Positions 5,193 through 43,970 are shown, numbered from the stretch's first letter. The stretch: DNA of 64,000 nucleotides from Candidatus Rariloculus sp. (GCF_965263005.1 NZ_OZ253579.1:1731668-1795667), one strand, 5' to 3'. Made by a program: numbers and translations. Notes: generated by a model not told the origin, from the sequence alone.

Positions 5193-7595
5193 ATGCGGCT
5201 CAGCGCCGGCGAAGGCGGCGCTCAAGTTCCTGTGCCGCGCGGCTGGCAGGTCGAAGCGAAGGCAGGTATTGTCGGACACGGCGGGCGCGCTGGTTGCATT
5301 GCGACGAAGCAAGCGCTCCGGCACCGAATTTGTACCGTAATACAATGGATTACGCTATTGACTCTGAATGCCGCCGGTAGACGGGGCGCCCGGGCGAGGC
5401 GGGACCCGCAGGCACCACCTCAGGAAGTCATTGCCGGACTCGTCGAGCGTGTCACTTTCCACAATCCGGAGAACGGATTCTGCGTTGTGCGCGTCAAGGC
5501 CCGAGGTCACCGCGATCTGGTGACCGTAGTCGGTCATGCGGCCATGATCTCGGCAGGGGAGTGGATCACGGCGTCGGGAGAGTGGGTCAACGACCGCAAT
5601 CACGGCCAGCAGTTCAAGGCGAGCTTCGTGCGGACATCGGCGCCGTCGTCCGTCGAAGGCATCGAGAAATATCTTCGCTCCGGCATGATACGGGGCATCG
5701 GTCCCGTTTACGCCCGGAAGATGGTTCGGGCGTTCGGCGAAAAGGTCTTCGACGTTATCGAGGCGGAACCGGAGCGGCTGCGCGATGTGCAAGGTATCGG
5801 CCCGGTCCGCGCCGGGCGCATCACCGACGCGTGGGCTGAGCAGAAGGTCGTGCGCGAGATCATGGTGTTTCTGCACAGCCACGGCGTCGGCACCGCGCGG
5901 GCCGTGCGAATTTTCAAGACCTATGGCGCGGATGCGGTTCAGGTCATGACCGAGGACCCGTACCGTCTGGCCAGGGACATTCGCGGCATCGGTTTCAAGA
6001 CCGCGGACACCATCGCCATGAAGCTCGGCATCGAACGGACGGCCATGATCCGCGTGCGGGCGGGGATCGGCTATGCGTTGGCCGCGGCGATGGACGAGGG
6101 ACACTGCGGCCTGCCGGCAGCCGAGCTGGTGCCGCTCGCGGGTGAATTGCTGGACGTGCCGGAGACTCTGGTCCAAACGGCGCTGGATCTGGAACTGGAG
6201 GAGGGAACTGTCGTCGAGGATACGGTGGGCGGAACCCCCTGCGTATTCCTCGAAGGCCTTTACCGCGCCGAGCGGTCGATCGGCGAGCGGCTGACGCGCA
6301 TCGCGCAGGGGCCGCTACCGTGGGCGCAGATCGATGCGGACAAGGCACTGCCCTGGATCGAGCGGGAGACGGACCTGGTGCTGGCCGCAAGTCAGGCCGA
6401 TGCGGTCCGTACGGCGCTGAGTTCCAAGGCGACGGTCATCACCGGCGGGCCGGGGGTGGGCAAGACCACGATCGTCAATGCCATCGTGCGCATTCTGGGC
6501 GCCAAGCGCGTGGAGATGCTGCTGTGTGCACCGACCGGTCGCGCGGCGCGCAGGTTGAGCGAGGCCACGGGGCTTGCGGCGCGCACGATTCACCGTCTGC
6601 TCGAAGTCGATCCCAGACACGGCGGCTTCAAGCGGGACGCTGACAACCCGCTTGCCTGTGGCCTGCTCGTGGTGGACGAGGCGTCGATGGTCGACGTCCC
6701 GCTGCTGCGTGCCCTGCTCGCGGCTGTTCCCGATGAGTCCGCGGTGCTCATCGTCGGCGATGTCGACCAGCTACCGTCCGTGGGGCCGGGTCAGGTGCTG
6801 TCCGACATCATTGCCGCCGGCGCGATCTCCGTCGTGCGGCTGACGGAGGTTTTCCGTCAGGCGGCCCGAAGCCAGATCGTCGCGACGGCACACAGGATCA
6901 ACCAGGGCCAACTTCCCAACCTCGGAAGGCCCGAGGGTGACAGCGACTTCTATTTCGTGCCGGCTGAGGAGGTGGAGACCGCGGTCGGGCGGATCGTGGA
7001 ACTGGTGAAGACGCGAATACCGCAACGCTTCGGATTCGATCCGATTGAAGACATACAGGTACTGTGTCCGATGAACCGGGGCGGCGCGGGCGTCCGTTCG
7101 CTCAATATCGAATTGCAGGCTGAGCTCAATCCCGCCGGCGAGCGCAAGGTCGAGCGATTCGGCTGGACGTTCGCGCCCGGCGATAAAGTGATGCAGATCG
7201 AGAACGACTACGAGAAGGACGTCTATAACGGCGATATCGGCCGAATCTCCGACGTCGATCCGGACACCGGGGAACTGACGGTGAGTTTCGACGGGCTTGA
7301 GGTCACCTACGGTTTCGGGGAACTGGACGCCCTGGTTCCGGCCTACGCCGCAACCATCCACAAGAGTCAGGGTTCGGAATATCCGGCTGTCGTGATCCCC
7401 GTGCTGACGCAGCACTACACGATGCTGCGGCGAAACCTGCTCTACACCGGCGTGACGCGCGGCAAGCGTCTCGTGGTCCTGGTCGGGCAGAAGAAAGCGG
7501 TGGCGATTGCCGTACGCAATGTCTCCGGAAGGCGCCGCTGGTCAAAGCTCCGCGAGTGGCTCGCGGGATCCGTACCGGAGAACGGGCAAGCCTGA
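5193..7595 (+). CDS. recD2: RecD2-type SF1 ATP-dependent DNA helicase (RecD/TraA family)
   Basis: 800-aa ORF. Walker A GGPGVGKTT, DEASMVD, tandem HhH-like region (IRGIGPVYARK / VQGIGPVRAGR), C-terminal ATIHKSQGSEYP...YTGVTRGKR. The true start is probably internal (e.g. TTG 5358, giving ~745 aa). Confidence 0.88.
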   Translation: MRLSAGEGGAQVPVPRGWQVEAKAGIVGHGGRAGCIATKQALRHRICTVIQWITLLTLNAAGRRGARARRDPQAPPQEVIAGLVERVTFHNPENGFCVVRVKARGHRDLVTVVGHAAMISAGEWITASGEWVNDRNHGQQFKASFVRTSAPSSVEGIEKYLRSGMIRGIGPVYARKMVRAFGEKVFDVIEAEPERLRDVQGIGPVRAGRITDAWAEQKVVREIMVFLHSHGVGTARAVRIFKTYGADAVQVMTEDPYRLARDIRGIGFKTADTIAMKLGIERTAMIRVRAGIGYALAAAMDEGHCGLPAAELVPLAGELLDVPETLVQTALDLELEEGTVVEDTVGGTPCVFLEGLYRAERSIGERLTRIAQGPLPWAQIDADKALPWIERETDLVLAASQADAVRTALSSKATVITGGPGVGKTTIVNAIVRILGAKRVEMLLCAPTGRAARRLSEATGLAARTIHRLLEVDPRHGGFKRDADNPLACGLLVVDEASMVDVPLLRALLAAVPDESAVLIVGDVDQLPSVGPGQVLSDIIAAGAISVVRLTEVFRQAARSQIVATAHRINQGQLPNLGRPEGDSDFYFVPAEEVETAVGRIVELVKTRIPQRFGFDPIEDIQVLCPMNRGGAGVRSLNIELQAELNPAGERKVERFGWTFAPGDKVMQIENDYEKDVYNGDIGRISDVDPDTGELTVSFDGLEVTYGFGELDALVPAYAATIHKSQGSEYPAVVIPVLTQHYTMLRRNLLYTGVTRGKRLVVLVGQKKAVAIAVRNVSGRRRWSKLREWLAGSVPENGQA

Positions 7596-7695: not shown

Positions 7696-8451
7696 TTACT
7701 CGGGACCTTCGCGGGACTCGAGGCCTTCGACGGATTGCAGCGTGAGCCGCGCGCGTAGCTCGCCGTCGCGGTATTGCTCGATGGCGACGGGCAGGTAGCG
7801 CAGTTCCGGCGCGACCCAGACGAGCGTAGTACGCGAGGAACCATCGCGTTGCTCAAGGAATCGCCGTGCCGTGAACGTTCCGGTCGGCGTGCTGATTTCG
7901 TCGTCCTCCTGCATTACGAACGAGTACGTCCGCAACTCGTTTTCGTCGGCGAGCGTGTACGGGCCGGGATGTCCGTTGGTCTCGATGTCGCGCATGAGCG
8001 CGACCTGCATCGCGCCGCGGTCGAGCACGCCGGGCGACAACTGAAGTGCAACGCCGCCGTTGGCGCCGTCTACTGCCACGAAGCCCGCGTCCCAGTCGAA
8101 CACCAAGTGGAAGTTGTCCTTGCCTTTGCGGCTGCCGTCTTCGTACCAGAACTCGAGCGGAGTAATGCGCCCGTCCTCGACGATGAAATTGCTGCGCTCA
8201 ACGACATCCCGCGGCGTGACGAGCCGCAGCAGTCCTCTTGCCCTGGTGCGCGAGCTGAAACTGTAAATTCCGCTGAGATCGTCGTAGCTGACCGCGAACT
8301 GTGCCGTGCCCACGTTTCGGCCCTTGTATTCGACCTGATAGCGGGCGGTGTAGGTTGCTACGGAGGGTTCGGCCGCTTCGAGGGTCGCGACAGCCGCTAC
8401 CGGCAGCAGCCACGCCAGTGTTAGCAGCCCGTGGCAAAAGTCCCGCTGCAT
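7696..8451 (-). CDS. DUF3108-like secreted protein
   Basis: ORF 7696..8607. Start at Met-53 (8451) gives signal peptide MQRDFCHGLLTLAWLLPVAAVATLEA. The pattern YxVxYKGxxVG...FxxDWD recalls DUF3108, which lies next to pur genes in other gammaproteobacteria. The first ~9 codons lie inside repeat copy A. Confidence 0.7.
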   Translation of the reverse strand: MQRDFCHGLLTLAWLLPVAAVATLEAAEPSVATYTARYQVEYKGRNVGTAQFAVSYDDLSGIYSFSSRTRARGLLRLVTPRDVVERSNFIVEDGRITPLEFWYEDGSRKGKDNFHLVFDWDAGFVAVDGANGGVALQLSPGVLDRGAMQVALMRDIETNGHPGPYTLADENELRTYSFVMQEDDEISTPTGTFTARRFLEQRDGSSRTTLVWVAPELRYLPVAIEQYRDGELRARLTLQSVEGLESREGPE

Positions 8452-8584
8452 TCGACCGACGATGCATCCCGGCCGTCTACGTTGCCCGTCGGTCGAATAT
8501 TCCCGATATTCTCTCTCCTCGCGCCTTGCCGGCCGGGCGCCTTGCCGGTCTCGGTGCGACGCGGGACTTTCGCGACGGGCTGCC
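8424..8584. repeat. ~161-bp MITE/REP-like structured element, copy A
   Basis: Aligns along its full length with 23851-24012, 27911-28071 and 49901-50061. Terminal inverted repeats GCAGCCCGTGGCAAAAGTCCC / GGGACTTTCGCGACGGGCTGC. Internal stem TTCGACCGACG...CGTCGGTCGAA. Confidence 0.9.
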
Positions 8585-8626
8585 AGGATTCGTGTCTCTG
8601 ATCCCATGATTCGCTCACCTCATCGA

Positions 8627-15232: not shown

Positions 15233-15496
15233 GTGATCGTTGGGCGGCATTGTAGCGGCCCGGCGCCGGCAAGTCCGTGGGGGCGTTGCATCGGCCTGCA
15301 TGAGGTCCACTGTGTGCGTTGGCATTCGGCGCTGCGGCGTCGGCAAAGCCGCGACCGCAAGTCCGTGCGCGCGCTGCATCGGCCTGCATGAGGTCCATCG
15401 TGTGTGCTGGCATTCGGCGCTGCTGCGCCGGCAAGGCCGCGACCGCAAGTCCGCTCGGGCATTGCGTCGCTGCGCCGATTGACGCAGCATGGGCGT
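15233..15496. repeat. 88-bp tandem repeat, ~2.7-3 copies
   Basis: Units begin at ~15233 (diverged), 15321 and 15409. The core ...GCAAGTCCGTGCGCGCGCTGCATCGGCCTGCATGAGGTCCATCGTGTGTGCT recurs. Lies between proS (start 15208) and pssA (start 15489). Confidence 0.85.
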
Positions 15497-23811: not shown

Positions 23812-23850
23812 GGATGTTCTCCTCAGGCTATGTCGATTCGGCTAACGGCT

Positions 23851-24012
23851 GGCAGCTCGTGGCACAAGTCCCGCTGCGTTCGACCGACGATGCATCCCGG
23901 CCGTCTGCGTTGCTCGTCGGTCGAATATTCCCGATATTCTCCCTCCTCGCGCCTTGCCGGCCGGGCGCCTCGCCGGTCTCGGCGCGACGCGCGACTTGTG
24001 CCACGAGCTGCC
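23851..24012. repeat. ~162-bp MITE/REP-like structured element, copy B (best-preserved)
   Basis: Perfect 20-bp terminal inverted repeat GGCAGCTCGTGGCACAAGTC...GACTTGTGCCACGAGCTGCC. Perfect 12-bp internal stem TTCGACCGACGA...TCGTCGGTCGAA. Lies in the divergent pepA<>lptF spacer. Confidence 0.92.
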
Positions 24013-24122
24013 GGATGCCGCTCGAACGGCAGCAGGCGGTTGCGTGCTTGCTGTTGACCGGCTTCCGGGGCGGCGGCTAGTGTACTCGATTCACTCCGGC
24101 CACTGGAAACGGGAGTCGCCGA

Positions 24123-27317: not shown

Positions 27318-27395
27318 TTTTTCGTGTGATTCGCGGGAAAGCTACACGACATCGTACTAGATTCCCGGCCGAAACGCCGCTGCGGCTTGACTTGG

Positions 27396-27480
27396 AAGCC
27401 CGTGGCGAAAGCCCCGCTGCATGGGGCGGAAGACCGCCTCGCCGGTCTCCGTGCAACGCCGGGCTGTTGCCTTGGGCTAC
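27396..27480. repeat. ~85-bp internally deleted variant of the MITE/REP-like element (copy C)
   Basis: Retains left-end GAAGCCCGTGGCGAAAGCCCCGCTGCA and right-part CGCCTCGCCGGTCTCCGTGCAACGCC...TTGCC..GGGCT. Lacks the central ~75 bp, including the TTCGACCG...CGGTCGAA stem. Confidence 0.7.
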
Positions 27481-27630
27481 AGGGCCCGCTACAGGCTCAC
27501 CGCCCGGTGGATGCACTCTCTTCGTCAAGGCCAAAGTCCCGTTGGACGAAGAGCTGCATTGCCCGGAGGGTCCCGTTCTTGCTATTCTGAACGTTCGTTT
27601 CCCGGCGTGTCGGCCCGTAACGAGAACGAT

Positions 27631-27900
27631 ATGAGTTGGCGTAAGCAGAACGACAAGCCGTTCGAGTTTCGGTCAGTCCACGAGTCCGAGCCACCGGACG
27701 GTGGTCAAGGCAACGATTGGGTGCGTTACGAGATCGTGCAAGGCCCTAATGTGATCACCGGTTATCGCCAGGGTTCGTTGCAATCGATCCAGGAGATCGC
27801 CGAAAAAATCGTCGTCGGCCTCAACGAGCGGCGATCGCCCAAGCGCGGGCGCGTGCAATTGACCCGGCTCAACAAGGCGACCAAGGTACGCGCATCGTAG
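27631..27900 (+). CDS. hypothetical small protein (89 aa)
   Basis: In ORF 27421..27900. ATG 27631 gives MSWRKQNDKPFEFRSVHESEPP...GRVQLTRLNKATKVRAS. The upstream part of the ORF runs through the short repeat. No family recognised. Confidence 0.5.
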   Translation: MSWRKQNDKPFEFRSVHESEPPDGGQGNDWVRYEIVQGPNVITGYRQGSLQSIQEIAEKIVVGLNERRSPKRGRVQLTRLNKATKVRAS

Positions 27901-27910
27901 TCCGCCCCCG

Positions 27911-28071
27911 GGCAGCCCGTGGCACAAGTCCCCCTGCATTCGACCGGCGATGCATCCCCGCTGGCTGCGTTGCTCGTCGGTCGAATATTCCCGATTTTCT
28001 CGCTCCTCGCGCCTTGCCGGCCGGGCGCCTCGCCGGTCTCAGTGCGACGCAGGACTTGCGCCACGGGCTGC
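27911..28071. repeat. ~161-bp MITE/REP-like structured element, copy D
   Basis: GGCAGCCCGTGGCACAAGTC...GACTTGCGCCACGGGCTGC. Full-length alignment with copies A, B and E. Confidence 0.9.
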
Positions 28072-28286
28072 TGGCCAGTCACGACTACTCCTTCGCATCC
28101 CCGGTACGCGGCGCTTCAAACGATCGTGAAGCCCCCGTTGATGCGAATGTTCTGGCCGACGCCCATATGGAACGTCGCTTGCGTCGCTTTGACAGCAGTG
28201 CAGCTTGCGGTGCGGGCGATTAAGCGCGCCGCGAGCGATATACTGCCGTGGGCGGATTGTCCGCCTGCATGCCGGGGAGAAAGCTC

Positions 28287-29486
28287 ATGTCCAGAATGAT
28301 TGCCGCGGCCTTTGCGGCCCTTGTGTTTGCAGGCTCCGCATCGGCCCACCATGGTTTCGGCCGCTTCGATCGAAGCCGTGAGATCCAGGTCGAGGGGACG
28401 GTGACGGGGATCGACTTCGTCAATCCGCACGCCTACGTGTATTTCGATGCCGTCGGGCCGGACGGCGAAGTCCTCGAGATGCGTTGCGAAATGCGCGCCG
28501 CGACCGTGCTGCGACGCTCCGGCTGGTCAGCCGAGATGTTCGTCGACGGCACGCACATCGCGGTCGACGGCCGCCCGCATCGCGACGACCCGGCCTCGTG
28601 CTACGTGGAGACGCTCGCGCTCGGCGACGATGAGATCCTCGAGCGCTACCAGCAACTTGGCGAAGCGGCAGCTCCGGCCGAGCGTGCCGACCGGCCCGCA
28701 CGTTTGCCGAGCGGCGTGCCCAACCTTGCCGGCGATTGGGCGCAGGAACAGTACCTCATGGCGCGCCCGCCCCGGGGCGGCGGCGCGCTCGTGCCGAAGA
28801 GCCTGATCGAGGCCGTCAACGCCGGCGAGATCGCACCCGAGGATGTTCCCGAATCGGACTGGGGCGCCCGTCCGGTGACCTATACAGAAGCCGGCATGGC
28901 AGCCGCCGTCGAACGCGCCAACGCGCCGCCAGGATCGGCGCCGCGCCTGCGCTGCGAGATCACGAGCATCCTGTTCGACTGGACCTTCGACGGTCCTATC
29001 AATCGCATCACTCAGAGCGAGGATACGATCACGATCGAGTATGGCCGCGGTCTGACCCGCACCGTCCATATGGACATGGAAGATCACCCGGCGACGATCG
29101 TGCCCAGTCGCGGCGGGCATTCGATCGGCCGCTGGGACGGCGACACGCTGGTCGTCGACACGGTCGGATTCGAGCCCGGCATCCTCGCGGGAATGGCGCC
29201 CATTGTATCGGCGACGACGATCGACGACGACGCGGCCGGAATCGAGCCCGCCACGTCCGCCGGACCTGTTACCCACAGCGGCGAGCTGCACGTCGTCGAA
29301 CGCTTCACGCTCGATCCGGAAACGATGGCGCTGAAGCGCGATTACGCCGCCGAGGATGCCCTGTATTTTGCCGACCCATATGTCGGCTCCGCCGTCGTGT
29401 TCCCGGCCGACGCACAGTTCGCGGTCGATCAATGCAAGGAGTTGGCCTACGAGTACATCACGCCCGCGGAGGGCGAGGGGCAATAG
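28287..29486 (+). CDS. secreted fusion protein: A|HH...NPH module + 'GxWxGDTLV' two-Cys module (family member P1)
   Basis: In ORF 28248..29486. GGGGAGA RBS precedes ATG 28287. Signal peptide MSRMIAAAFAALVFAGSASA|HHGFGRFD...VNPHAYVYFD. C-terminal part has HSIGRWDGDTLVVDTVGF...HSGELHVVERF...DQC. Confidence 0.8.
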   Translation: MSRMIAAAFAALVFAGSASAHHGFGRFDRSREIQVEGTVTGIDFVNPHAYVYFDAVGPDGEVLEMRCEMRAATVLRRSGWSAEMFVDGTHIAVDGRPHRDDPASCYVETLALGDDEILERYQQLGEAAAPAERADRPARLPSGVPNLAGDWAQEQYLMARPPRGGGALVPKSLIEAVNAGEIAPEDVPESDWGARPVTYTEAGMAAAVERANAPPGSAPRLRCEITSILFDWTFDGPINRITQSEDTITIEYGRGLTRTVHMDMEDHPATIVPSRGGHSIGRWDGDTLVVDTVGFEPGILAGMAPIVSATTIDDDAAGIEPATSAGPVTHSGELHVVERFTLDPETMALKRDYAAEDALYFADPYVGSAVVFPADAQFAVDQCKELAYEYITPAEGEGQ

Positions 29487-29735
29487 CCGGCGCCTGGACA
29501 CCGACCGCAAATGTGGCGCAATTTCCTTGGAGCCTGCCGGTGGCCCGCAATATCCGTCTGCGCGTTTCTGCTGGCTACGGCCGACGCAGACGACCGCTCA
29601 GTGGCGCCGAAGGTATCCGAATTTCAGTTTGCCCGACTGGCTTTCGGCGCTGCTGTTGCCGGCCGTGTAACCCGCCACAAGCGGGGCGAACAGCGCCGCC
29701 AGTCAACTTCCGATTCCACCGGTCGTGTCGCCTAC

Positions 29736-30188
29736 CTATTGCTCGGCCGAGCCGATGAATGTTTTGCTGATAATTTTCCACCCCGTTCCATCATCGATCA
29801 GATGAAAGTAATTGGTGAAACTCATGTTGCCAGGAAATCCCGTTTCCGTGAGCGTCACCGCGGCCACCTGCCCATCCATCTCGACGCTGACGATTTGCGA
29901 CCGATACTCCGCGCCTGAGTCCCTCAGCCGAAGGTTTTCCATGTCCTCGATAAACGGCGTGGGGTCGGCCACGATCAGTTGATCGCCGAGGTAGCCGTTC
30001 ATGACCGCTCTGTCATGGAACACGCTGCGCAGTTTGTCGCCATCCCCCTCGTACGTTCCCTGCGTGTACAACTCGATTACCTCGTCAATGCTTGCCGCTT
30101 CAGGTGCTGGCGCCTGCGGGTACCCAATCGCGGGCAGCAACAGCGATGACAGCAATACCGCGCCAATCCACTTCTCGACCAAATTCAT
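29736..30188 (-). CDS. NTF2/SnoaL-like (lumazine-binding-like) secreted protein
   Basis: 150-aa ORF with signal peptide. IELYTQGTYEGDGDKLRSVFHDRAVMNGY...NYFHLIDDGTGWKIISKTF is typical of the NTF2-fold 'putative lumazine-binding' family. Confidence 0.65.
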   Translation of the reverse strand: MNLVEKWIGAVLLSSLLLPAIGYPQAPAPEAASIDEVIELYTQGTYEGDGDKLRSVFHDRAVMNGYLGDQLIVADPTPFIEDMENLRLRDSGAEYRSQIVSVEMDGQVAAVTLTETGFPGNMSFTNYFHLIDDGTGWKIISKTFIGSAEQ

Positions 30189-30207
30189 TTTCTATCCCCT
30201 CATCGAA

Positions 30208-30375
30208 CTATTGGGCGATGACTCCAATACACTCGATCTTCACGCGACCGCCGAGCGCCAGACCGCTCGTCCCCAAGACGCTTCGCGCCGGCAGATTTTC
30301 GCCGAAGAACATCACGTGGACCACGTTCATCTGATCCCATTTTGCCATGTCCGCAAGTAAAACGCGCACTTCACG
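30208..30375 (-). pseudogene. RidA/YjgF-family C-terminal fragment (5'-truncated)
   Basis: The last ~55 aa of ORF 30208..30486 read VLLADMAKWDQMNVVHVMFFGENLPARSVLGTSGLALGGRVKIECIGVIAQ (PARS...VEIE-type C-terminus). The N-terminal ~70 aa are missing and are replaced by IS-end sequence at ~30392. Confidence 0.65.
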
Positions 30376-30391
30376 ACCCGCTCCATGGACT

Positions 30392-30433
30392 GCTCGGCGA
30401 TGGGGATGTCGGCATATGAGGTACACGGCCCCG
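30392..30433 (+). mobile_element. ~41-bp remnant of an IS left end (5' UTR plus first 6 transposase codons)
   Basis: GCTCGGCGATGGGGATGTCGGCATATGAGGTACACGGCCCCG matches the reverse complement of 43927-43968 with 3-4 mismatches. That region is the start of the transposase fragment MRYTAP.... Confidence 0.6.
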
Positions 30434-30614
30434 TGGACAAGGCATGCACAACTCCGCCAGTGGCGAGACCCAACGCAAGACTTCAAGAGTTGAATCTGGC
30501 AGCATATTGAGGAACAACGGATTCCACCTTAAATTAGCTGCCAAACTGTCCAGCGTTTGGCGTCCACTTCTCCTACGCGAACTGTCACCCTGAACACGCT
30601 GGAGGGCGCCGTAC

Positions 30615-31685
30615 ATGAACGTTGCGAGAATCTCAGGCTACCTTGCGTTTAGGACGGTAATTGCCGCAGCTCTCGGCCTGCTAATTGCTTCGCAATTGGC
30701 GGGCTGCTCGCGAGGTATCGGCACCGCTCCAGATAGCGATTCGCTGTATGCGCTGGGCGAGGCGGAGCGAAATGAAATATCACCCGAGCTGGCGCCAATC
30801 TTCAATCGCGAAGGTTTGCCAAGGTCGTCTAACATCATCACCGTTTACCACAGTGACGGATACGAACACCGCATTGCAGAAGTTCGCGAACTGGTCGTAG
30901 AGGGCATGGACTTCTACAACAGTAAGCTGGGAATCGACAAGGTTGTCAATGTCGCAATCTTGGATCGAGGAGATTGGCAAGTGGTCAGCGGAGACTTGCC
31001 GTACGGTCTTCCATTCGTTTCGGGGTTTGATGATCCAATTGTTGTCCTTCCGGCGACCGATGATGGCGTTTTGGGGATCGGTGCCAACGCCATGAAGCAA
31101 TACGCGTCGACGGAAACAATGGCGAAACTTTCTGATGTGGGCATGGATTTCGAAAAAGGCGCGCGATTGTTCGTCAACGCAATCGCGCTGCATGAACTTG
31201 GTCATGTCTACGGTGATCTGTATCGCATTCAACCGCGAACCAACTGGTTCGCGGAGTTCCTGGCGACCTACATTGGCTATGTTTTTCTTCGCGATCGCCG
31301 CCCCGAACTCGCGACGGTGTTCGAAGTGTACGCATTTCACCTCAACAATGACGCGCCGGGTCCACAGGACCGAAGTCTAACGCGATTTGAGCGGGAATAC
31401 GGCGGCGTTGGACCCGACGATTACGCTTGGTATCAGGGCATGTTTCTCGATCTCGCAATACGGCTCTACGATGATCATGGCGTCGGCTTGCTGGACGAGT
31501 TCGGGCAGCATTTTCCCCCGGAAGACGGCGGGATCACGTTCGATCTACCGGACGATCGTGATCGGGACTACCTCGAGAGAGAACTTGACGTCTTGGATAA
31601 GATCAGCCCGAAGATACGGGACTGGGCCGAGCGTCTGCAGGCAGCCGCGCTTGCACAGACGGTGGGAACATCGGAAAGCAGATGA
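30615..31685 (+). CDS. lipoprotein with HExxH zinc-metallopeptidase motif
   Basis: 356-aa ORF. Lipobox QLAGC. ALHELGHVYGD (HExxH). Visibly lower GC than its surroundings. No closer family recognised. Confidence 0.7.
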   Translation: MNVARISGYLAFRTVIAAALGLLIASQLAGCSRGIGTAPDSDSLYALGEAERNEISPELAPIFNREGLPRSSNIITVYHSDGYEHRIAEVRELVVEGMDFYNSKLGIDKVVNVAILDRGDWQVVSGDLPYGLPFVSGFDDPIVVLPATDDGVLGIGANAMKQYASTETMAKLSDVGMDFEKGARLFVNAIALHELGHVYGDLYRIQPRTNWFAEFLATYIGYVFLRDRRPELATVFEVYAFHLNNDAPGPQDRSLTRFEREYGGVGPDDYAWYQGMFLDLAIRLYDDHGVGLLDEFGQHFPPEDGGITFDLPDDRDRDYLERELDVLDKISPKIRDWAERLQAAALAQTVGTSESR

Positions 31686-31799
31686 CGTTCCAGGGCGATG
31701 CGACGGGCAGGCTGAGATTTGCAAAGCCGGCCTATTCCACACTCAATCCGCCCAGATGCGGTCCTGCAGCGAGACTAATGGGCAACATAGAGCCTGGCA

Positions 31800-31950
31800 T
31801 CGCGAGCGAACGACCCTTCCGGTCGATCGCGCTGAGCACGCTTTTTTTCAGCAGCCGGTTCTCGAGCATCATCTCGGCCAGGAGTTCTTTTAGCTGAACG
31901 GCCTGGCGCCATTGGCGGATGCGCGGCTCGTCGATGCGCAGATGGCCGGC
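31800..31950 (-). mobile_element. IS3-family OrfA (leucine-zipper region) remnant
   Basis: Within ORF 31732..32247. IRQWRQAVQLKELLAEMMLENRLLKKSV resembles the ...LKKLLAEAMLDNAALK... C-terminus of IS3/IS407-group OrfA. No intact transposase follows. Confidence 0.45.
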
Positions 31951-32071
31951 TTGGAAGCGACCGTCGCGAATCGGTCCTGCGCGAGTGGCGGACACGTGGC
32001 CGGCCCATCTGTGAGTGGCCGATGTGGTACCGTCCGGCGTATCGACGATGCATGCTGGCAGGAGTACGAAC

Positions 32072-32474
32072 ATGAGCGGATTTCTGTCGCGGCGGGAGAT
32101 GCTCAAGCGCGCGGCTCGATGCCGTCGACGCGCATGCACGCGATACGGCCGGTCAGCCGTTCGCGGAACTCGCCGCAAACCAGCAGGACGCGGTGCTCGG
32201 TGACCTCGAACAGAACGTCGGCGACGGATTCGAGCCTGACGCCGCAACGTTCTTCGACATGGTCCTGCAGCACACGATAGAGGGAACGTTCTCTGACCCG
32301 CAGTACGGCGGCAATCGCGACTTCATCGGTTGGGAGATGCTCGGCTACCCGGGGCTGCGTCTCGCCGTCGGCCCGAACGAACAGACAATGGATGCGCGTC
32401 CCGAGATGACGCGGCTCTCCGCCTACGATCTGCCGATGTTCGATTCGCCCGACAGCGAGGGTGACTCGCCGTGA
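32072..32474 (+). pseudogene. gluconate 2-dehydrogenase subunit-3-family protein, frameshifted or internally deleted
   Basis: The Tat signal MSGFLSRREMLKRAA (ATG 32072) is in a different frame from the conserved C-terminal part ...FFDMVLQHTIEGTFSDPQYGGNRDFIGWEMLGYPG (ORF 32193..32474). Confidence 0.6.
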
Positions 32475-33055
32475 CCGTCACGCTTGCGGGCACGGATGTC
32501 GCCGTCATCGGCCTCGGGGGCGTCGGCGGCGTGGCCGTGCTGCCGCTCGCAGAAGCTGGAATGGACGTCGTCGGGCTCGAAGCGGGCACCTGGCGATCGG
32601 CGAGCGACTTCGCGCCGGACGAGTTGCGCAACAACTACCGCGGCTGGCCGCAGGCCGCGCAGAAGGCCAATCGCGAGATTCCCGTGCATCGGCCGAACGC
32701 GTCGGCGCCGGATTCGCCACGCGGCAGCGTCCATCCGATGATGAACGGCGTCGGCGGCACGACGCTGCATTACTGGGCGCAGAGCTGGCGGCTCAATCCC
32801 TGGGACTTCCGGGTCGTCAGCGAGACGACGCGCTGCTACGGGGCGGCACGCATTCCTGCCGGCTCTACCGTCGAGGACTGGCCGTTCGGCCTCGAGGAAC
32901 TCGAGCCGCACTACGACCGCGTCGAGCGCGAGGTCGGCGTTTCGGGGCAGGCCGGCAATGTCAACGGCGCCATCGACGAGCGCGGCAACGTCTCGGACTT
33001 GCCCGAAGGCCGGTTGAGGCGAACAACGCTTCGTCTGCCAACGCTGCAAGCCTGA
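32471..33055 (+). pseudogene. GMC-family flavoprotein oxidoreductase, N-terminal third only
   Basis: 194-aa ORF. FAD fold DVAVIGLGGVGGVAVLPLAEAGMDVVGLEAG. Family similarity ends near ...GNVNGAIDERGNV (~32990). Full-length homologues are ~550 aa. Confidence 0.65.
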
Positions 33056-33184
33056 TCGCCCCCACCGCTGTCCGTCAGTTGCACAAAGATTGCGTGCCAG
33101 TCACCGGCGCCATGCTGCAGGACGTACGGACGGAAAGGAATACGCTATGCTTACCGAGATCAGCTCGCAGCGAGGAGGCATCGC

Positions 33185-33589
33185 ATGCGTGTCGTAGGAA
33201 TCCTCTCGATTGTCGCTTCCTTCGGGTTTGCCGCGGCGCCATCGACTCTGGCGCATCATTCGTTCGCAGCGCAGTTCGACCCGACCAAGCCCGTCACCCT
33301 TGAAGGAACGGTTACCAAGGTCGAGTGGCGAAACCCCCATATCTGGGTATACCTGGACGTCACCGACGCCGATGGCGCTGTGACTTCCTGGGAATGTGAA
33401 GGCGGGGCGCCGAACGCACTCACAAGACGGGGATGGAGCAGCCAAACCTTGAAGCCCGGCTCCACGCTCGAGATTCATGGCTACCTCGCAAGAAACGGGA
33501 CCAATACCTGCAACGCTCGAACGTGGATCTATGAGGGTCGAACCGTGTTCGCTGGGGAAGCCAGCGACGGCGGCCCCTCGCCTGATTAG
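33185..33589 (+). CDS. small secreted A|HH...NPH module protein (DUF6152-like)
   Basis: 134-aa ORF. Signal peptide ...APSTLA|HHSFAAQFDPTKPVTLEGTVTKVEWRNPHIWVYLDV...RRGW...KPGSTLEIHG. Confidence 0.8.
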   Translation: MRVVGILSIVASFGFAAAPSTLAHHSFAAQFDPTKPVTLEGTVTKVEWRNPHIWVYLDVTDADGAVTSWECEGGAPNALTRRGWSSQTLKPGSTLEIHGYLARNGTNTCNARTWIYEGRTVFAGEASDGGPSPD

Positions 33590-33620
33590 AGCCAAAGTCT
33601 TCCGTAACGGAGAACCTCCG

Positions 33621-34457
33621 ATGAGACACGCAAGTTTAGTCGTCACCAGCTCGGTCACGATGGCTGCGGCCTTGAACCTCTGGTTCCTCGCAGTGTCGCC
33701 GGCGTTCGCACAACGTGCCGTGTACGAGCGCAACGTTGTCCTTACGGAACAACCCGAGCCGGACGGCACGCCTGTTCCACGAACGGCTGACGGGCGCGCG
33801 GACCTCAGCGGAGTCTGGAACAAGGCGATTCACCAAAACACCGCTGCGCCCGTCGAACCGCTGCCTTTCACGCCGGACGGGCTGAAAGCGTTCAACGACG
33901 TGGCGAACATCATCGATCCCACGGCGCGCTGCATCCTTCCTGGCGTGCCGCGCGTCAACAACTCACCGTACCCGATGCAAATCATGCAGATGCCGGACCG
34001 GGTCGTCTTTGTCTATGAGTACATGCATAACTTCCGGGTGATCTATACGGACGGGCGTGGCCACCGTGAGAACTGGGAGGCTTCCCTGATGGGTGACTCG
34101 ATCGGCCGCTGGGATGGCGACACGCTCGTGATCGATACGGTAAACCTGACCGATCGAACACGTCTCGATGATCACGGCAACGTGCACAGCGACGCACTGC
34201 ACGTGATCGAGCGCTGGCGTCGCATCAGTGCGAACGAGCTGTGGTACGAAGCGACGATAGACGACCAGAAGTACTACACGGAGCCCTGGACAACCGGTTA
34301 CGTCATTCCTCTGGCCCCGCCGGATTGGGAGATCATGGAATACGCATGCACCGACAACAACAAGGACCTGTACGACGGCCACCTGCAGCCTGGCTCTCTC
34401 AGCGGATCGGGGCGGGATGGCACGGCGCTCGCTACGCCACCGATTTCGAGGGAGTGA
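33621..34457 (+). CDS. secreted 'GxWxGDTLV' two-Cys module protein (family member P2)
   Basis: In ORF 33477..34457. GGAGA RBS precedes ATG 33621. Signal peptide. ARCILPGVPR...FRVIYTDGRGH...DSIGRWDGDTLVIDTVNL...HSDALHVIERWRRI...EYACTDNN. Confidence 0.8.
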   Translation: MRHASLVVTSSVTMAAALNLWFLAVSPAFAQRAVYERNVVLTEQPEPDGTPVPRTADGRADLSGVWNKAIHQNTAAPVEPLPFTPDGLKAFNDVANIIDPTARCILPGVPRVNNSPYPMQIMQMPDRVVFVYEYMHNFRVIYTDGRGHRENWEASLMGDSIGRWDGDTLVIDTVNLTDRTRLDDHGNVHSDALHVIERWRRISANELWYEATIDDQKYYTEPWTTGYVIPLAPPDWEIMEYACTDNNKDLYDGHLQPGSLSGSGRDGTALATPPISRE

Positions 34458-34643
34458 CCGGCGCGCAGGCAGTAGCGCCATCGGGCTGCAGATTGAGCGC
34501 AGTCGGACTTGCCCGCGGGCCGGTCGAAGCGTATAACGCGCCGTCAGTCACGCGAAACGCTTGCGACCGCATCGACGAAACTGAAGGCTCTCCCGAGGCC
34601 TTCTTTGCATGTTTCTGATGTCGTAGATATTTTTCGTTTAAAT

Positions 34644-34720
34644 CGGGGTGTAGCTCAGCCTGGTAGAGCACTGTCTTCGGGAGGCAGGGGCCGGAGGTTC
34701 AAATCCTCTCACCCCGACCA
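34644..34720 (+). tRNA. tRNA-Pro (anticodon CGG)
   Basis: 77 nt, folded by hand. Acceptor CGGGGTG/CACCCCG, D arm GCTC...GAGC, anticodon stem CTGTC/GGCAG with loop TTCGGGA (CGG), T arm GGAGG-TTCAAAT-CCTCT, encoded CCA. Close to E. coli proK. Confidence 0.93.
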
Positions 34721-34788
34721 ATCCAGACACGAGCGCACGCTCGTACGCGAATCCCTGAGCCGAGCGGCGAATCGGTTTTCGCGGCTCG

Positions 34789-35328
34789 CTATAGCTCCGC
34801 AGGCTCCACGATACTGAATCCGGCGACATCAACCGCCTGGCGCGAGACCGTGCCGAAGTAGCGGATGGCGCTGGCGCCGGCCACGGCGCCTGTCAATGCG
34901 CCGCTGACCATGGTCAGCCTCAGACTGGACGCGCCGGCCAGGTTGACGTGGGCATCGATGAAGACAAAGCCATCCAGCTCGATATCGCCGGCCCCGGCCA
35001 GCGACAGGTCGAGTTCGTCATAGCGACTGTCATTGCCGACTATTCGGGTCGCGCCGGCGACATCGATCAAGAGGCGCTCGCCTTCGAAGCCGGAGAGCGT
35101 CAGGTGGCTGCTGCCGGCCGCGTCCAGTTCCGCCAGCGCCGGCATGACGATTTCCGCGGAGAACTCGCTGCTCGACCGTCCGAAAAACGATCCCGGCTTC
35201 GCGCCGGTCAGGGTGAGCCGCTCGCCGCGCACGGATGCGTCGACGGATTCGACGCCATCGTCGGTAGAAAACAGGTCCACCTGCCAATCTTCACCTTGGG
35301 TTATGGTGACGGTCCACTGGCCTCCCAT
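34789..35328 (-). pseudogene. DUF2807 / head-GIN-domain protein lacking N-terminus
   Basis: 179-aa ORF. Repetitive beta-helix-like pattern (LTLSGFEG...IDVAGATRIVG...LSLAGAGDIELDG...VNLAGASSLRL). No signal peptide or N-terminal region. Abuts the GntR fragment in another frame. Confidence 0.5.
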
Positions 35329-35402
35329 TCGCCCTGCAGGATGCGGTCGCGGATCTGGTCCGCGATCTGCAGGTAAATGCTTCTGGGCTCGCTAAACTCC
35401 AT
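35301..35402 (-). pseudogene. GntR/YtrA-family regulator N-terminal ~25-aa fragment
   Basis: Manual translation from ATG 35402 gives MEFSEPRSIYLQIADQIRDRILQGEW..., the typical start of GntR wHTH regulators. It then runs into unrelated sequence and a stop. Confidence 0.45.
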
Positions 35403-35465
35403 CGCTGACCTGCGTCTCCCGAACTCTGAGCCAGGCGATCTTCCAGCACGCCATTGGCAGCAGGA

Positions 35466-35940
35466 TCACGAAGATCGTCTGGAGTGTCTCGCCCAACAAA
35501 GCCAGTCTCCGGTATAGACCAGGCCGTCAACTGCTTCGGGACGATGCCCGCTGACGGAAAAGCGCAGGTAGCCGCGCAGGTCAGACGCAGTCCGGTTCAG
35601 CAGCACGCGGCCCTCATGAACGATCACGATGCGATCCACAAGCGATTCCACATCCCTGACCTGGTGTGTCGAGACCACGATGGCCTGCTCTTCGTTGATC
35701 GCTTCGGCCACAAGGCGCCTGAAGATCCCCTTCGACGGGATGTCGAGGCCGTTGGTCGGCTCGTCCAGAAACATGAGCGAGGTGTTGCACGCCAGACCGA
35801 ATGCCAACAGGAACTTCTTCTGCTGGCCGTGCGAGAGTTGTGTCAATCTCCTGTCTTCGGGGATCTCGAACTCCTTGAGCTACCGTTGCATTCGGGTTTG
35901 ATCGAAATCCGGATAGAGAGGGAGCGCACGGCGACTTAGT
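35466..35940 (-). pseudogene. ABC transporter ATP-binding protein, C-terminal half with in-frame stop
   Basis: ORF 35466..35846 has the signature LSHGQQKK and Walker B LMFLDEPTNGLD. Upstream in frame: ...YPDFDQTRMQR*LKEFEIPEDRRLTQLSHG. The Walker A region is absent. Confidence 0.65.
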
Positions 35941-35987
35941 CGCGGTATTCTGCCGGGCTTTCGCTTTCGAGTGGACATGGACGAAGT

Positions 35988-36803
35988 CTAGAGGAAGCTG
36001 TGCGGCCATATCATCGTGCGCCACATGTGGGCGACAGGCGAACCGTCAAATCCGAGGCCCTCGCGTGGTTGCCTGAAGTTTCGGCCGACGACATCTTCGA
36101 ACTGATCGATCGAAAGGTCTGTGACGTTTGGATCGAACGCATACAGGTCATTGAGCATGATCAAACGTGCCGTCATGTACCAGCGGTGGTTGCGTGCCTC
36201 GTCGTACTCAGCCTGTACCCAGGGTTCGACTTCATAGGCCTCGCCGAACCAGGCGCGATAGCTCGCGGGGTAGTCATAACCTACGGCTTCGTCTGCGAAA
36301 AAGCGCAAGGCCTGGTGTTTTTGCACGGCCCAGGCAACTTCTTCATCGACGTAAGGTGCGATGAGTTGAGCGGCATAGAACCCGTGGTCCATCCGGATGA
36401 ACGCCTCGACGGAAATGTCGTGAAGGAGGCAGGCCAGGATGACCTTCTCGTCCATGCCCTCCTGCATAGCCAGATTTGCGCTCTGCAACAGGTGGGCAGG
36501 ATTGGCCATCCGGTGCCGAAATATGTCTAGCAGCGTCGGTCTCTCCGGCATTCGGGGCAGTCGCGGATCATCCATTCCGGCCATGTATTTCGACGGCGGT
36601 GCTCCTCCCTGCGAGTTCGATCCAGGCGGCGCCATCGAACGAGGCTCATCCGGCTCACACAGGAATGGTTTCTCTATGTGTCGCGCCAGGCCGTCGATCA
36701 TGACTCCTTCGAACGCTTCCGCGCGTTGACTGAGCGTCATTTCGGCGGTGAAAGTGGCTGCTGCCGCCGCGGCAGTGCAGTTCATGAAGGTGCGCCGATC
36801 CAT
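35988..36803 (-). CDS. Tat-signal HD-domain protein (PhnZ/MIOX-like superfamily, tentative)
   Basis: 271-aa ORF. MDRRTFMNCTAAAAAA (twin-Arg). HLLQSANLAMQEGMDEKVILACLLHDIS (HD motif). 15 nt downstream of the TonB receptor gene. Confidence 0.65.
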   Translation of the reverse strand: MDRRTFMNCTAAAAAATFTAEMTLSQRAEAFEGVMIDGLARHIEKPFLCEPDEPRSMAPPGSNSQGGAPPSKYMAGMDDPRLPRMPERPTLLDIFRHRMANPAHLLQSANLAMQEGMDEKVILACLLHDISVEAFIRMDHGFYAAQLIAPYVDEEVAWAVQKHQALRFFADEAVGYDYPASYRAWFGEAYEVEPWVQAEYDEARNHRWYMTARLIMLNDLYAFDPNVTDLSIDQFEDVVGRNFRQPREGLGFDGSPVAHMWRTMIWPHSFL

Positions 36804-36818
36804 CGTGTAATCCAGGAG

Positions 36819-39382
36819 CTAGAAACGGTACCTGAATTCGACGCCGACCTGACGAGGCACGCCGACGTTCACCAGCGTGATCGCCGGCGGCGCGTTTCCC
36901 CTGGGGTTCAGCGACGCAATGCCGGTGAACACGTACGCCGGATGGTTATCGGGCTTGTATGGGAACACCGTGTTCGATGTGCCTCCAGCCCATGCCGCGC
37001 CACCAGTGATGTATTCCTCGTCGGCACAGTTGGTGCAGTACAACGATGCGTTCCAGGTGCCATCCGGCGGCGTGTAGCCGACGCGCAGGGTGAGCAGATC
37101 GTATTCCGGGATTCTAAGTGTCGTCGAATCCTGTCCGCTTGAGTTCTGCTCGTCTTTGTAGGCATAGTCGATCGATGCTCTGATGATCGCACCCGAGTTC
37201 AGGTCCCAGGTGTTGGATAGGCCGAGGTTGTAGCCGAGATCCGGGGCACGGCTGAAGTTGGAGTCGAACTCGACCCCCGACGTGAGATTCAGGATTTCAT
37301 CCCAATTGGCATCCAGCGTGCCGGCGCCGAGCTTGAACTGGAGCGAGTCGGTCAGAAGCGCCTGAAGCTCAAGCTCGACGCCCGAAATCTCGGCCGAGCC
37401 GACGTTGATCGTACAGCGCCTGGCGCACCGCGTGTCAGCGGTCACTGTAAGCTGCTTGTCTTCGTAGTCCATCTGAAAGTACGTGACGTTTGCGCGCAGG
37501 CGGCCGCTTGCAGACTCGATGCGCGTTCCAATCTCGTAGTTCCAGACTTCCTCGGGCTGAAACGGTGTATCGATATCGTCCGGCTGATCGTTCGTGCCAC
37601 CGGACTTGAAGCCCTTCGAGGCCGCGGCATACAGCATCACGATATCGGTAGGCTGCCATTCGAGCGCGACGCGCGGTGTCACCGACTCGAACGTATCCGT
37701 GCCGGAAAGTGTAGCGGCAGCGGCGGACGGGACGATGTTCTCGTTGGCATCGAGGAAACACGGATTCGTGGCTGTACAGCCGCCGTAAGTGTCACCATCC
37801 GGGTTAACGTACAGTACATTTCGACCCCCCCGTCGATCGATATCTCGATAGTTCGAGTTGTTGTCCGGGCCGTTAGGGTCTATTGCGTGGATTTCGAACA
37901 GTCGCCGATCGAGTTCGGCGTCGAAAACACCGAGGTTGTACGCCGCGTACGACTTGTCGTCTTCGGTCCAACGCGTGCCGAGCGTCAGCGTGAAATTCTC
38001 ACTGAACTGCCAGTCCACCTGAGCGAATATGCCGGTGCTATCGGTTTCCTCCTGTGCGTTTGTGAGATGTTCGAGTGCGCCCCACTGGAATCCGCCCGCC
38101 CATCGGTAATCCTTGTTCGACAATAGCCTCAGGCCAGGTTCTTCGACCGAATAGTAGAGCCCCGCGACCCAGTTGAGTCGGTCGCTTTCCGAGACGCCAT
38201 TGAGCTGAAACTCCTGCGACCAGAAGTCGCTGAAGTTGTTCGTGCCGCCATCGAAGAACGATTCGGCGTACATGCTTTCGTCCGACTCGCGTTGCTCAAG
38301 TGTGTCCATGTCGCGCCAACCGGTGATCGAGCGCAATGTCAGCCGGTCGGAAATGTCGTAGGAAATGTCGAGCGTGACACCGGTGCTCTCGGCCGTGGTA
38401 AAGCCGATAGGGCCGGTTCCTGCAACGTGGTACAGGCTGTCCGGGATCGACGGTGCGTAATGTTCGGGTGTGCCCGCCGGAAAGATCGTTTGATAGGCAG
38501 CCAGATTCGAGATGCCGCCAGTAAAGATTGGCGCCCCGGTGTCGCCCTCGATTTGGGGAGTCGCCGGATCATCCCAGCCGCCGTTGAAACCGAAGTAATC
38601 GATCAACTTCGATGCGCCGCCATTCGATTCCGACTCGCTGCGGTTGATGTTGATGTCGATCGTCAGGTCATCGGACGGCTGGAACCGGAATTGCGCAGAG
38701 AAGTAGTCCGTATCGTCGGCACCAAGCCCCGCGCCGTCGGACAGGCGCTCCAGATAACCGTCGCGTTCCAGATGCGAATAGGCGAAGCGCGCGGCGGCAT
38801 TGTCGCCAAGCGGCAGTTGATGGCTGCCTGAACGTTTGCCCGGTCGTAGTCGCCCAGACCGACCAACACGTCACCGGAGACACCGCCGCCGATGTCCGGC
38901 TTGACAGTCACGTAGCGGATCGCGCCACCGGTCGAGTTTTTGCCGAAGAGCGTTCCCTGCGGACCGCGCAGCACTTCGACTCGCTCGACGTCGAGGAGTC
39001 GCAGGAAGTTGGTGAACGGACGCCCGTAATACACGTCATCGATGTAGACACCGACGGCGGGATCGAGCACCGGACTGATGCGTGCCTCGTTGATGCCGCG
39101 TATCGAGAACTGGGCGCCCACGTTGGCACGGCCGGTGCCATCGCCGATGCTCACGTTCGGTACGAAATCGGCCATGGCCTGAGGATCGCTGATCCCGAGG
39201 CGATCTAGTGTGTCGGCCGACAACACCGTGATCGCGACCGGTACCGACTGCAGGTCTTCTTCTCGTCGCTGAGCGGTGACGAGGATTTCTTCGAGGACAC
39301 CCGCCTGTCCAAGCGCAAGCGGTGTGTAAAGAGGCACGGATACGGATGTCGCAATGGCAACGCTGAGCAGGCGCAGTTTCAT
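36819..39382 (-). pseudogene. TonB-dependent receptor with a single frameshift (or sequencing error) near 38815
   Basis: ORF 38663..39382 carries the signal peptide plus plug (EEILVTAQRREEDLQSVPVAITVL...LRGPQGTLFGKNSTGGAI). ORF 36819..38606 carries the barrel, ending ...VGVEFRYRF. After ...VQAAIN the family-like sequence LPLGDNAAARFAYSHLERDGYL continues in another frame. Confidence 0.85.
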
Positions 39383-43673: not shown

Positions 43674-43970
43674 TCAAGCCGGGCCACCCGATTGCTCTGC
43701 GTCTTCGGACAGGGCCAGGTCGACGATCGCCGACGTGGTTTCCTCAGGGATCTTGTTCCACGCCCGGCGCGGTCGAGGCGGGCGGTCCGCCAACGCCTCC
43801 ACGCCGCCCTCGGCATAGCGCCGGTACCAACCGTAGAACGTGGATCGGGGAATGCCCATAGGCGCCAGCGTGCGTCGCACCGACACACTGGAGCGTTCCA
43901 CCAATTTAATAGTCTCGAGCTTCTCCGGGGCCGTGTACCTCATATGCCGGCCTCCCCATCCGCGAGCGGC
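43674..43970 (-). mobile_element. IS remnant: N-terminal HTH part of an rve-type (IS3/IS481-like) transposase
   Basis: Within ORF 43674..44363. MRYTAPEKLETIKLVERSSVSVRRTLAPMGIPRSTFYGWYRRYAEGGVEALADRPPRPRRAWNKIPEE..., then it diverges. No integrase core. The same 5' end recurs at 30392-30433. Confidence 0.7.

Follow-up and report, generated by a model that had tools for sequence, protein, structure and literature searches.

A 160-bp inverted-repeat element of Candidatus Rariloculus sp., very probably a MITE, and its candidate mobilizing insertion sequence

Introduction

What is the short palindromic repeat that recurs along the 64,000 nucleotides of Candidatus Rariloculus sp. DNA analyzed here (the window, in what follows), and which activity could have brought it to its several positions? 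A first, sequence-only reading had described it as a new element of MITE or Correia type. The Correia repeats of Neisseria (CREE/NEMIS) are ~100-160 bp long, have ~25-bp inverted ends, duplicate a TA and are found between genes or at gene 5′ ends. They carry no internal transposase, are co-transcribed into hairpin RNA, and have A+T-rich ends, unlike the GCAGCCCGTGG with which the present element begins; to our knowledge, no transposase has been identified for them. The question has several parts, i.e., how the element is bounded, what it does to its target, whether filled and empty sites exist, which enzyme might move it, and why its two halves are complementary.

Results

Four full copies and one degenerate copy in the window

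The four copies that had been reported are where the sequence-only reading placed them: they align end to end, a profile built from all four recovers each of them in the window at E values of 1e-55 to 1e-58 (nhmmer), and their cores could be refined to 160 bp. The pairwise identity of the cores is 87-92%, and all four lie on the + strand. Copy A occupies positions 8422-8585 (core 8424-8583) and is flanked by TA (8422-8423) on the left and by a decayed CA (8584-8585) on the right. Copy B, which was the subject of the first reading, extends from 23850 to 24013 (core 23852-24011) between decayed TG and CG flanks, copy C from 27910 to 28073 (core 27912-28071) between decayed GG and TG flanks, and copy D from 49900 to 50063 (core 49902-50061) between TG and TA. 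A fifth, short and degenerate copy on the same strand (~27392-27483) consists of two ends only (left ~30 nt, right ~55 nt); it matches model positions 7-39 and 119-174, the middle (positions 40-118) being deleted (nhmmer).

In copy B the left terminal inverted repeat (23852-23875, + strand) reads GCAGCTCGTGGCACAAGTCCCGCT and the right one (23988-24011, + strand) ends in …GCGCGACTTGTGCCACGAGCTGC, and both the perfect 20-bp inverted ends and the perfect internal 12-bp complement that had been noticed in this copy are present in the sequence. Between them, at 23921-23937 (+ strand), lies GAATATTCCCGATATTC, an A+T-rich stretch that forms a small terminal hairpin and is the centre of the palindrome. 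The left-end consensus of the family is GCAGCCCGTGG[CA/TG]AAAGTCCC. The G+C content of the window is ~63% throughout. Because it is G+C-rich, the element is nearly free of stop codons in all six frames, and open reading frames that run across it therefore carry no weight.

The element is flanked by a duplicated TA

The sequence-only reading had seen no target-site duplication. In order to define the target, the flanks of copies of the family (see below) were compared. In 38 full copies with flanks, drawn from 43 genome loci, the arrangement is C-TA-GCAGCCCGTGGCAAAAGTCCC ... GGGACTTTTGCCACGGGCTGC-TA-G, or, with the ends in shorter form, C-TA-GCAGCCCGTGG...CCACGGGCTGC-TA-G, and the ends are sharply bounded. 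The flanking bases were counted in 61 independent copies, which were oriented by their asymmetric interior. The outer bases vary (left C48/T8/G5, right G50/A8/C3), and the two sides mirror each other; the inner bases are near-constant (G in 58 and C in 60 of the 61 copies). In 28 of the 61 the TA lies within CTAG on both sides. Variable outer bases next to constant inner bases point to a 2-bp duplication of TA within a YTAR target, mostly CTAG, whereas a 4-bp duplication would predict outer and inner bases that vary equally, and equally on both sides. From these counts the duplication is most likely 2 bp long. A few copies fit 4 bp (TTAG/TTAG, CTAA/CTAA), and since CTAG is palindromic most copies fit either length.

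A TA within CTAG is thus duplicated after all. It had escaped notice because the TA dinucleotides of the window copies have mostly decayed, to TG, CA, CG or GG. As a separate observation, both in the window copies and in the flanks of the family, the flanking CTAG has mostly changed to CTGG or CCAG, and this much faster than the adjacent end bases have changed. Such a decay would be consistent with a bias of mutation or repair, directed at CTAG, in these genomes.

Filled and empty sites in relatives

Insertion polymorphism was found at two sites, the pepA-lptF spacer and the purM|DUF3108 junction. The relatives that provide the empty sites have 73-86% protein identity, so that the flanks can be aligned only in part. 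PurM of the window matches WP_428102729.1 of Candidatus Rariloculus sp. at 100% identity, and the order of pepA and lptF-lptG is likewise in keeping with a gammaproteobacterial host. The closest two relatives have PepA proteins 100% and 96% identical to that of the window, whereas in the distant ones PepA is 73-78% and PurM ~85% identical. The pepA-lptF spacer, which holds copy B, has a length of 311 bp in the window; in L044, the 96% relative, it is 309 bp long, and in L053 and L054 (PepA identity 75-77%) 149 bp, so that filled and empty spacers differ by exactly 162 bp, i.e., 160 + 2. The 38 nt between the element and the pepA start could be aligned to the empty spacer by hand. At the second site, L051 and L052 (PurM ~85%) have purM and the DUF3108 gene either separated by 8 nt or overlapping, whereas 175 nt lie between the two genes in the window and its close relatives; in one close relative, L046, the distance is 208 nt owing to a 33-nt insert in the orthologue of copy A, at about 7150-7185.

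L044 was considered as a source of empty sites and rejected, because it carries copies B and C and the short copy, partly deleted: it shares copy B, its copy C is 5′-truncated by ~105 bp, and its short copy has suffered a further deletion between GCTGCAT microhomologies. Since L044 shares the insertions and the 73-78% relatives are empty, the element was inserted before the 96% split and after the 73-78% split. In the host genome the copies look old and immobile, judging from the decayed TA, the 87-92% identity, the insertions held in common with the 96% relative, and the lack of a transposase nearby.

The family extends to at least two phyla

We searched a species-representative genome collection of 596 Gb with a 23-base mid-element pattern, which matched 43 loci, against a chance expectation estimated at ~0.3 (~1.2e12 both-strand positions / 4^21). 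Most of these loci are full-length copies, and the element is the sole sequence that they have in common with the window; copies thus exist by the dozen at unrelated loci of other genomes. About 20 of the 43 lie on one complete chromosome of the Gammaproteobacteria, OY761822.1. Further loci belong to Ca. Rariloculus and Rariloculaceae, and many to MAGs of the Vicinamibacterales/Vicinamibacteraceae (Acidobacteriota), where contigs of 1.5 and 4.35 Mb are among those matched. A weak relative of full length is present in one MAG of the Deltaproteobacteria, and the single match in Binatia is to the pattern alone. The density of about one copy per 13 kb that had been read from the window does not apply generally, a related 5.9-Mb chromosome having ~20 strict-pattern matches.

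The acidobacterial copies are 82-87% identical to those of the window, i.e., barely more divergent than the window copies are among themselves, and we infer that the family spread across phyla by horizontal transfer. With this degree of identity between Gammaproteobacteria and Acidobacteriota, the repeat can serve to mark gene flow between uncultured lineages of soil and sediment.

The 23-base end sequence occurs in at least 120 metagenome contigs from many environments. When ends were paired, three classes were obtained: the 160-bp family (exactly 160 bp in 48 of the 116 end-to-end pairs among the metagenome matches listed), other small families (161, 172, 120, 177 bp, etc.), and elements of 1.49-1.54 kb. 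At least four of the small families (161, 161, 172 and 120 bp) have identical 24-bp ends and other interiors; their members are found in L082, L104, L108, L170, L116 and L164; in L088, L122 and L165; in L093, L110 and L168; and in L158 and L167. Several of these sister families keep an A+T-rich apex like GAAATACTCCCGGTATTC, and most fold as full-length rods. Within the 160-bp family itself, an extra insert of 30-41 nt is found at a fixed internal place in L014 (4502-4696), L042 (5343-5538) and L013 (3664-3871), and the inserts of L014 and L042 are near-identical, with 3 differences in ~38 aligned positions.

Other collections gave no record of the element. With Rfam 15 the gathering-score match in the window was a tRNA alone, and copy B had, at E = 10, only chance-level miRNA matches; the only Neisseria-related match of copy B at this threshold was a chance-level frameshift element outside the core. 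A blastn search of plasmids gave two chance-level matches, and the literature searched made no mention of the host genus or of the end sequence. The MITE family therefore appears to be undescribed so far, as the sequence-only reading had proposed on calling it new.

Insertion sequences of 1.5 kb carry the same ends

Neither the window (tblastn) nor the genome loci contain a homologue of the transposase described below, so the absence of a nearby transposase, noted at the outset, is borne out. Metagenome contigs yielded autonomous elements with matching ends. Elements of 1.49-1.54 kb, bounded by the same repeats, are present in nine of these contigs and in a tenth, and each of these elements has one ORF of 455-480 aa with DUF772 and DDE_Tnp_1/DDE_Tnp_1_6 domains (Pfam). 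The left end of copy B is identical over 21 nt to that of the 1.5-kb element in L069. The sequence common to the IS and the MITE is the terminal 21-24 nt at each end, and the repeat variants GGCAAAAGT and GGTGAAAGT, which differ by CA/TG, are both present among IS and MITE copies.

The best NCBIfam models are matched below their curated cut-offs (IS1182, 157 bits vs 270; IS5_4, 89 vs 140). Homologues of the transposase number >8000 at E < 1e-40, mostly on contigs of IS size, which is expected of a multi-copy repeat in short-read assemblies. Homologues of ~53% identity are located on plasmids of Sphingobium, Novosphingobium, Rhodovastum and others; the one on pLB1 is annotated as an IS5 family transposase, the others just as 'transposase'. 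The ends of the pLB1 relative are related (CAGGCCGTTGACGAAGTCGGC), and CTAA flanks it left and right. On the strength of the common ends, an IS1182/IS5-like transposase probably mobilizes the MITE in trans, which connects the repeat with a family of transposases that is very abundant in soil and sediment bacteria and has been little studied.

No contig was found that carries both the IS and the MITE, L177 included, and a search of the 43 genome loci for lone ends or an IS gave just one coincidental match, at the dut/coaBC junction in L027. A viral-classed contig, IMGVR_UViG_3300033141_006126 (L055, 9899-10067), contains a lone end copy that is succeeded, in a stretch ending after 170 nt, by unrelated sequence and may represent an IS left end.

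Two copies lie within the first codons of genes

All copies had been taken to be intergenic or at gene 5′ ends. This is so for copies B and C, whereas copies A and D lie within the 5′ coding ends of two genes. Copy B is located in the divergent pepA/lptF spacer, 38 nt upstream of the pepA start codon, and copy C starts 10 nt past the stop codon of a small + strand gene (~27632-27900), upstream of a + strand DUF6152 gene. The gene entered by copy A is a minus-strand DUF3108 gene; the element lies within the 5′ coding end of this gene, a short way downstream of purM, whose stop is at 8627. Copy D is located in the corresponding part of a minus-strand gene for an ankyrin-repeat protein with a signal peptide; it follows the stop of the upstream gene (50096) at a distance of 31 nt.

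When 162 nt are removed at copy A, an ordinary signal peptide, MGSETRIL|TLAWLLPVAAVATLEA, is obtained. The DNA past the purM stop in L051 translates to MKRCPSLPLRVVRSAWLLLALGALVDA, which is comparable to this restored N-terminus of DUF3108, so that the element was inserted in the first codons of the gene. Removal of 162 nt at copy D would likewise restore MSVARRESRA|RPRLVVTLAVLGLVSATAHS in the ankyrin gene. In close relatives the gene callers start DUF3108 at the ATG that corresponds to window position 8451, inside the element. On the minus strand of the element, 30-48 nt from the exit, there are two ATG codons, in ATGCAT and ATGCAG, whose spacing of 19 nt places them in different frames; one continues into the reading frame of the ankyrin gene, the other into that of DUF3108. 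Copies A and D would occupy the first codons of genes whose products are exported, and the ATGs of the element could act as replacement start codons. A length of 3n (162 nt = 54 codons) was considered as a design of the element and rejected, since the sister families measure 161, 172, 177 and 120 bp and the element is poor in stop codons in all frames.

Two minus-strand ORFs, 7696-8607 (303 aa) and 48263-50092 (609 aa), continue through copies A and D, and annotation may therefore give N-terminally extended or mis-started DUF3108 and ankyrin proteins. With the boundaries given here, a repeat that annotation pipelines now read as protein (a DUF3108 start inside the element, long spurious ORFs) is delimited.

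The whole element is one covarying hairpin

We analyzed the consensus fold with RNAalifold on 34, and then on 50, unique copies. The consensus is one long imperfect hairpin that runs from the ends to the A+T-rich apex GAATAT-TCCCG-ATATTC. The ~24-bp ends are conserved in the 50 unique copies, and in the first 11 positions 47-50 of the 50 are paired. Over the 50-copy alignment 96.5% of the cells of the rod are paired, as against 88.5% in column shuffles; 18 pairs show double-sided changes (9.7 when shuffled), and such cells number 154 (50 when shuffled). None of 500 shuffles matched the observed values, and when the partners were slid by 1-3 columns pairing fell to 36-46%. Among the covarying pairs, 12-163 is U-A in 29 copies and C-G in 20, pair 35-138 is C-G in 27, G-C in 16 and U-A in 3, and pair 54-122 is G-C in 17, C-G in 14 and U-A in 13; in the apex, pair 90-97 (alignment A6) is U-A in 33 copies and C-G in 16. 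The rod is therefore a conserved fold over the full length of the element, kept by compensatory changes. Copy B folds at -100 kcal/mol on the + strand (z = -8.4) and at -110 kcal/mol on the - strand (z = -10.5). In most of the sister families every inner pair falls on the axis of the rod, vs 0.07-0.3 after interior shuffling.

These results revise the structure that had been drawn from copy B. The ends do pair, as described, but complementarity spans the whole element and goes beyond two ends plus one inner stem. The internal 12-bp hairpin is not a conserved fold: 86.3% of its cells are paired, vs 86.2% in shuffles, with zero covariation, and it competes with the rod for the 5′ arm and is broken in the acidobacterial copies.

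Both G-U and A-C departures from pairing occur in the rod, so that neither strand is marked as the folded one. In quasi-palindrome mutation, template switching between the arms copies a change from one arm to the other, and by this mechanism covariation of the rod can arise without selection. A further proposal is that the rod is required. It would make the elements a ~160-bp superfamily with the same ends and unrelated interiors, under selection for folding or extrusion as a single hairpin whose apex is A+T-rich, either because the transposase acts on a folded (cruciform or single-stranded) form or because a hairpin RNA serves the host (e.g., in the RNase III-dependent insulation of adjacent genes), and the outward ATGs in two frames would let an insertion in the first codons spare genes for exported proteins. 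We regard this proposal, taken as a whole, as rather unlikely. The compensation of the rod across families that are unrelated in sequence raises the question of whether this transposase family needs a folded substrate.

Orientation and regulatory signals

The common + orientation of the copies holds in the window, where all of them lie on the strand of positive GC skew; as a property of the family it does not hold, there being no link to GC skew and a weak one to gene direction. On OY761822.1 orientation agrees with local GC skew in 6 of 17 copies, i.e., the two are not linked, and on the evidence of these 17 copies of one chromosome a replication-strand bias, such as that of single-strand transposons, was rejected. 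Flanking genes are weakly in excess on the minus strand of the element (38 vs 21 flank calls at 5 nt; at 60 nt, 13 "--" vs 7 "++"), these being calls of a crude GC3 coding caller that are not independent of each other. Five copies would fall on one strand with a probability of ~1 in 16, and chance is the preferred explanation of the orientation common to the window copies. A scan of copy B revealed no promoter or terminator consensus, and the role as a terminator that had been suggested finds no T-run in this copy.

Discussion

The element is very probably a non-autonomous DNA transposon (MITE) with a 160-bp non-coding core and ~24-bp inverted ends, presumably mobilized in trans by an IS1182/IS5-like IS with duplication of TA. 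It is small, has no internal transposase gene, possesses terminal inverted repeats and a target-site duplication, shows insertion polymorphism and has a matching autonomous element. The MITE/Correia-like character proposed by the sequence-only reading is thus sustained by the inverted ends, the TA/CTAG flanks, the two 162-bp empty sites, the unrelated loci and the IS with the same ends. According to this model the DDE transposase, supplied by a ~1.5-kb IS1182/IS5-like IS with the same ends, would bind the MITE ends in trans, excise the element and paste it into a TA within YTAR (mostly CTAG), whereby the TA would be duplicated. The rod might aid movement or tolerance of the element by cruciform extrusion via the A+T-rich centre, which would bring the ends together, or, alternatively, it might fold in RNA when the element is co-transcribed. 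Several points weigh against the model. The IS and the MITE share only ~21-24 nt per end and lie on separate contigs, the transposase scores below the curated NCBIfam cut-offs, and the internal conservation and covariation exceed what a cut-and-paste MITE needs, which leaves room for an additional role. In addition, 4-bp repeats are reported for IS1182-family elements (ISPse1) and for MITEPye1 (see below), and the CTAA/CTAA flanks on pLB1 and a few of our copies would fit this length.

The covariation is also an argument for an element that is primarily a structured RNA, i.e., a multi-copy sRNA gene or a hairpin that acts in cis on gene regulation or is processed by RNase III. Such an element would be maintained for the function of its transcript, and would move only secondarily or not at all. 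Its fold is very stable on both strands (copy B), covariation is strong over the whole length, the sequence is conserved across phyla, and the non-independent flank calls show the weak minus-strand excess of 38 vs 21. However, no Rfam family was matched even at E = 10, no promoter or terminator consensus was detected, and the flanking genes are unrelated and lie on both strands. Moreover, the ends are common to transposase-bearing IS, the insertions are clean, 162 bp long and flanked by TA/CTAG, the G-U and A-C departures concern both strands, and the covariation of a palindrome could come from template switching. We consider this explanation improbable.

A second alternative accepts a MITE but assigns it to IS630/Tc1-mariner in the strict Correia sense, so that an IS630-family transposase targeting CTAG would duplicate the TA. 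A TA duplication within CTAG is a hallmark of IS630, and the size and inverted ends of the element resemble those of Correia repeats. A partner of the IS630 type was in fact what the CTAG/TA target had first led us to expect. This was ruled out by the long elements, which are IS1182/IS5-like: the product of each long element found with such ends is a DUF772 + DDE_Tnp_1 protein, and no IS630-like partner is present among the 121 repeat-carrying contigs listed, which leaves this assignment very improbable. Finally, a REPIN-like element, in which a tyrosine transposase of the RAYT/IS200 type mobilizes paired palindromes in the form of single-stranded DNA, would account for a long hairpin with compensatory changes and for window copies that all lie on the positive-GC-skew strand, but an IS with a DDE transposase has identical ends, the TA is duplicated, several phyla are occupied (REPINs are described as vertically inherited), orientation is unrelated to GC skew (6/17) and the GTAG-type REP head is absent, which makes this the most remote of the readings and an extremely improbable one.

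Among known systems, the closest parallel described for the MITE favored here is MITEPye1 of Paracoccus yeei, an IS1182-type MITE with a long stem-loop and ISPye18 as its presumed mobilizer, which has 4-bp direct repeats and 18-bp ends and occurs in 1-3 copies per chromosome in one species (PMC11578231). Both elements are small, non-coding and intergenic, have the ends of an IS1182-type IS and a long stem-loop, and are presumed to be mobilized in trans. There is no detectable sequence similarity between them in the plasmid blastn search, which presumably included the P. yeei replicons, and the present element differs in that a 2-bp TA duplication fits, its ends are ~24 bp long, and it is spread over no fewer than two phyla and 120 metagenome contigs and has sister families.

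Correia repeats resemble the element in size, inverted ends, TA duplication, location and the absence of an internal transposase. They belong to another lineage, appear to be unrelated in sequence, and pair at their ends only, whereas the present element has a covarying rod over its whole length and a candidate transposase; its copy B scan gave no evidence of an IHF site or of a promoter. In the Tourist MITEs of plants, similarity to a DDE transposon (IS5 superfamily; PIF/Harbinger, the eukaryotic relatives of IS5) is confined to the terminal repeats; these MITEs have a palindromic target containing T-A, frequent hairpins and a 3-bp TWA duplication. They are likewise short, non-autonomous and similar to their partner at the ends only; being eukaryotic and having a 3-bp duplication, they provide an analogy only. 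Rickettsia palindromic elements (RPE) are also palindromes of ~150 bp that lie inside coding genes with the frame kept (here 162 nt = 54 codons), but RPE add an inserted peptide, whereas the present element would more likely provide a new internal start codon. REPINs and their RAYT, in turn, share with it a hairpin stem kept by compensatory changes, and differ in their tyrosine transposase as opposed to a DDE partner; the present element has a target duplication, is found across phyla and lacks a replication-strand bias. General knowledge of MITEs is unchanged by the family.

Other features of the window

Some further features were observed in the window. An 88-bp unit is present as a tandem duplicate (86% identical) at 15263-15438, in the spacer beside the prolyl-tRNA synthetase gene, and overlapping blast pieces suggest that its copy number differs in L044. 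Six paralogous genes (29121, 34098, 42921, 55061, 60969 and 63347) have a conserved 53-nt segment that encodes ...GRWDGDTLVVDT..., and the paralogue at 28248-29486 corresponds to a gene called as DUF6152 in a relative. L044 is without window segments 29598-33025 (0.7 kb instead), 34524-34687, 35104-37979 and 38155-38774; the segment 34524-34687 (164 bp) ends in the 5′ part of a tRNA gene (34644-34717, 5′ end at 34644). The stretch 29598-38774 looks like a strain-variable island beside a tRNA gene. The G+C content drops to 0.57-0.59 at 30-32 kb and at 36-43 kb. A 42-bp inverted repeat, 90% complementary, has its arms at 30392-30433 and 43926-43967, 13.5 kb apart, where they roughly flank the region of low G+C; the surroundings of the two arms are otherwise dissimilar.
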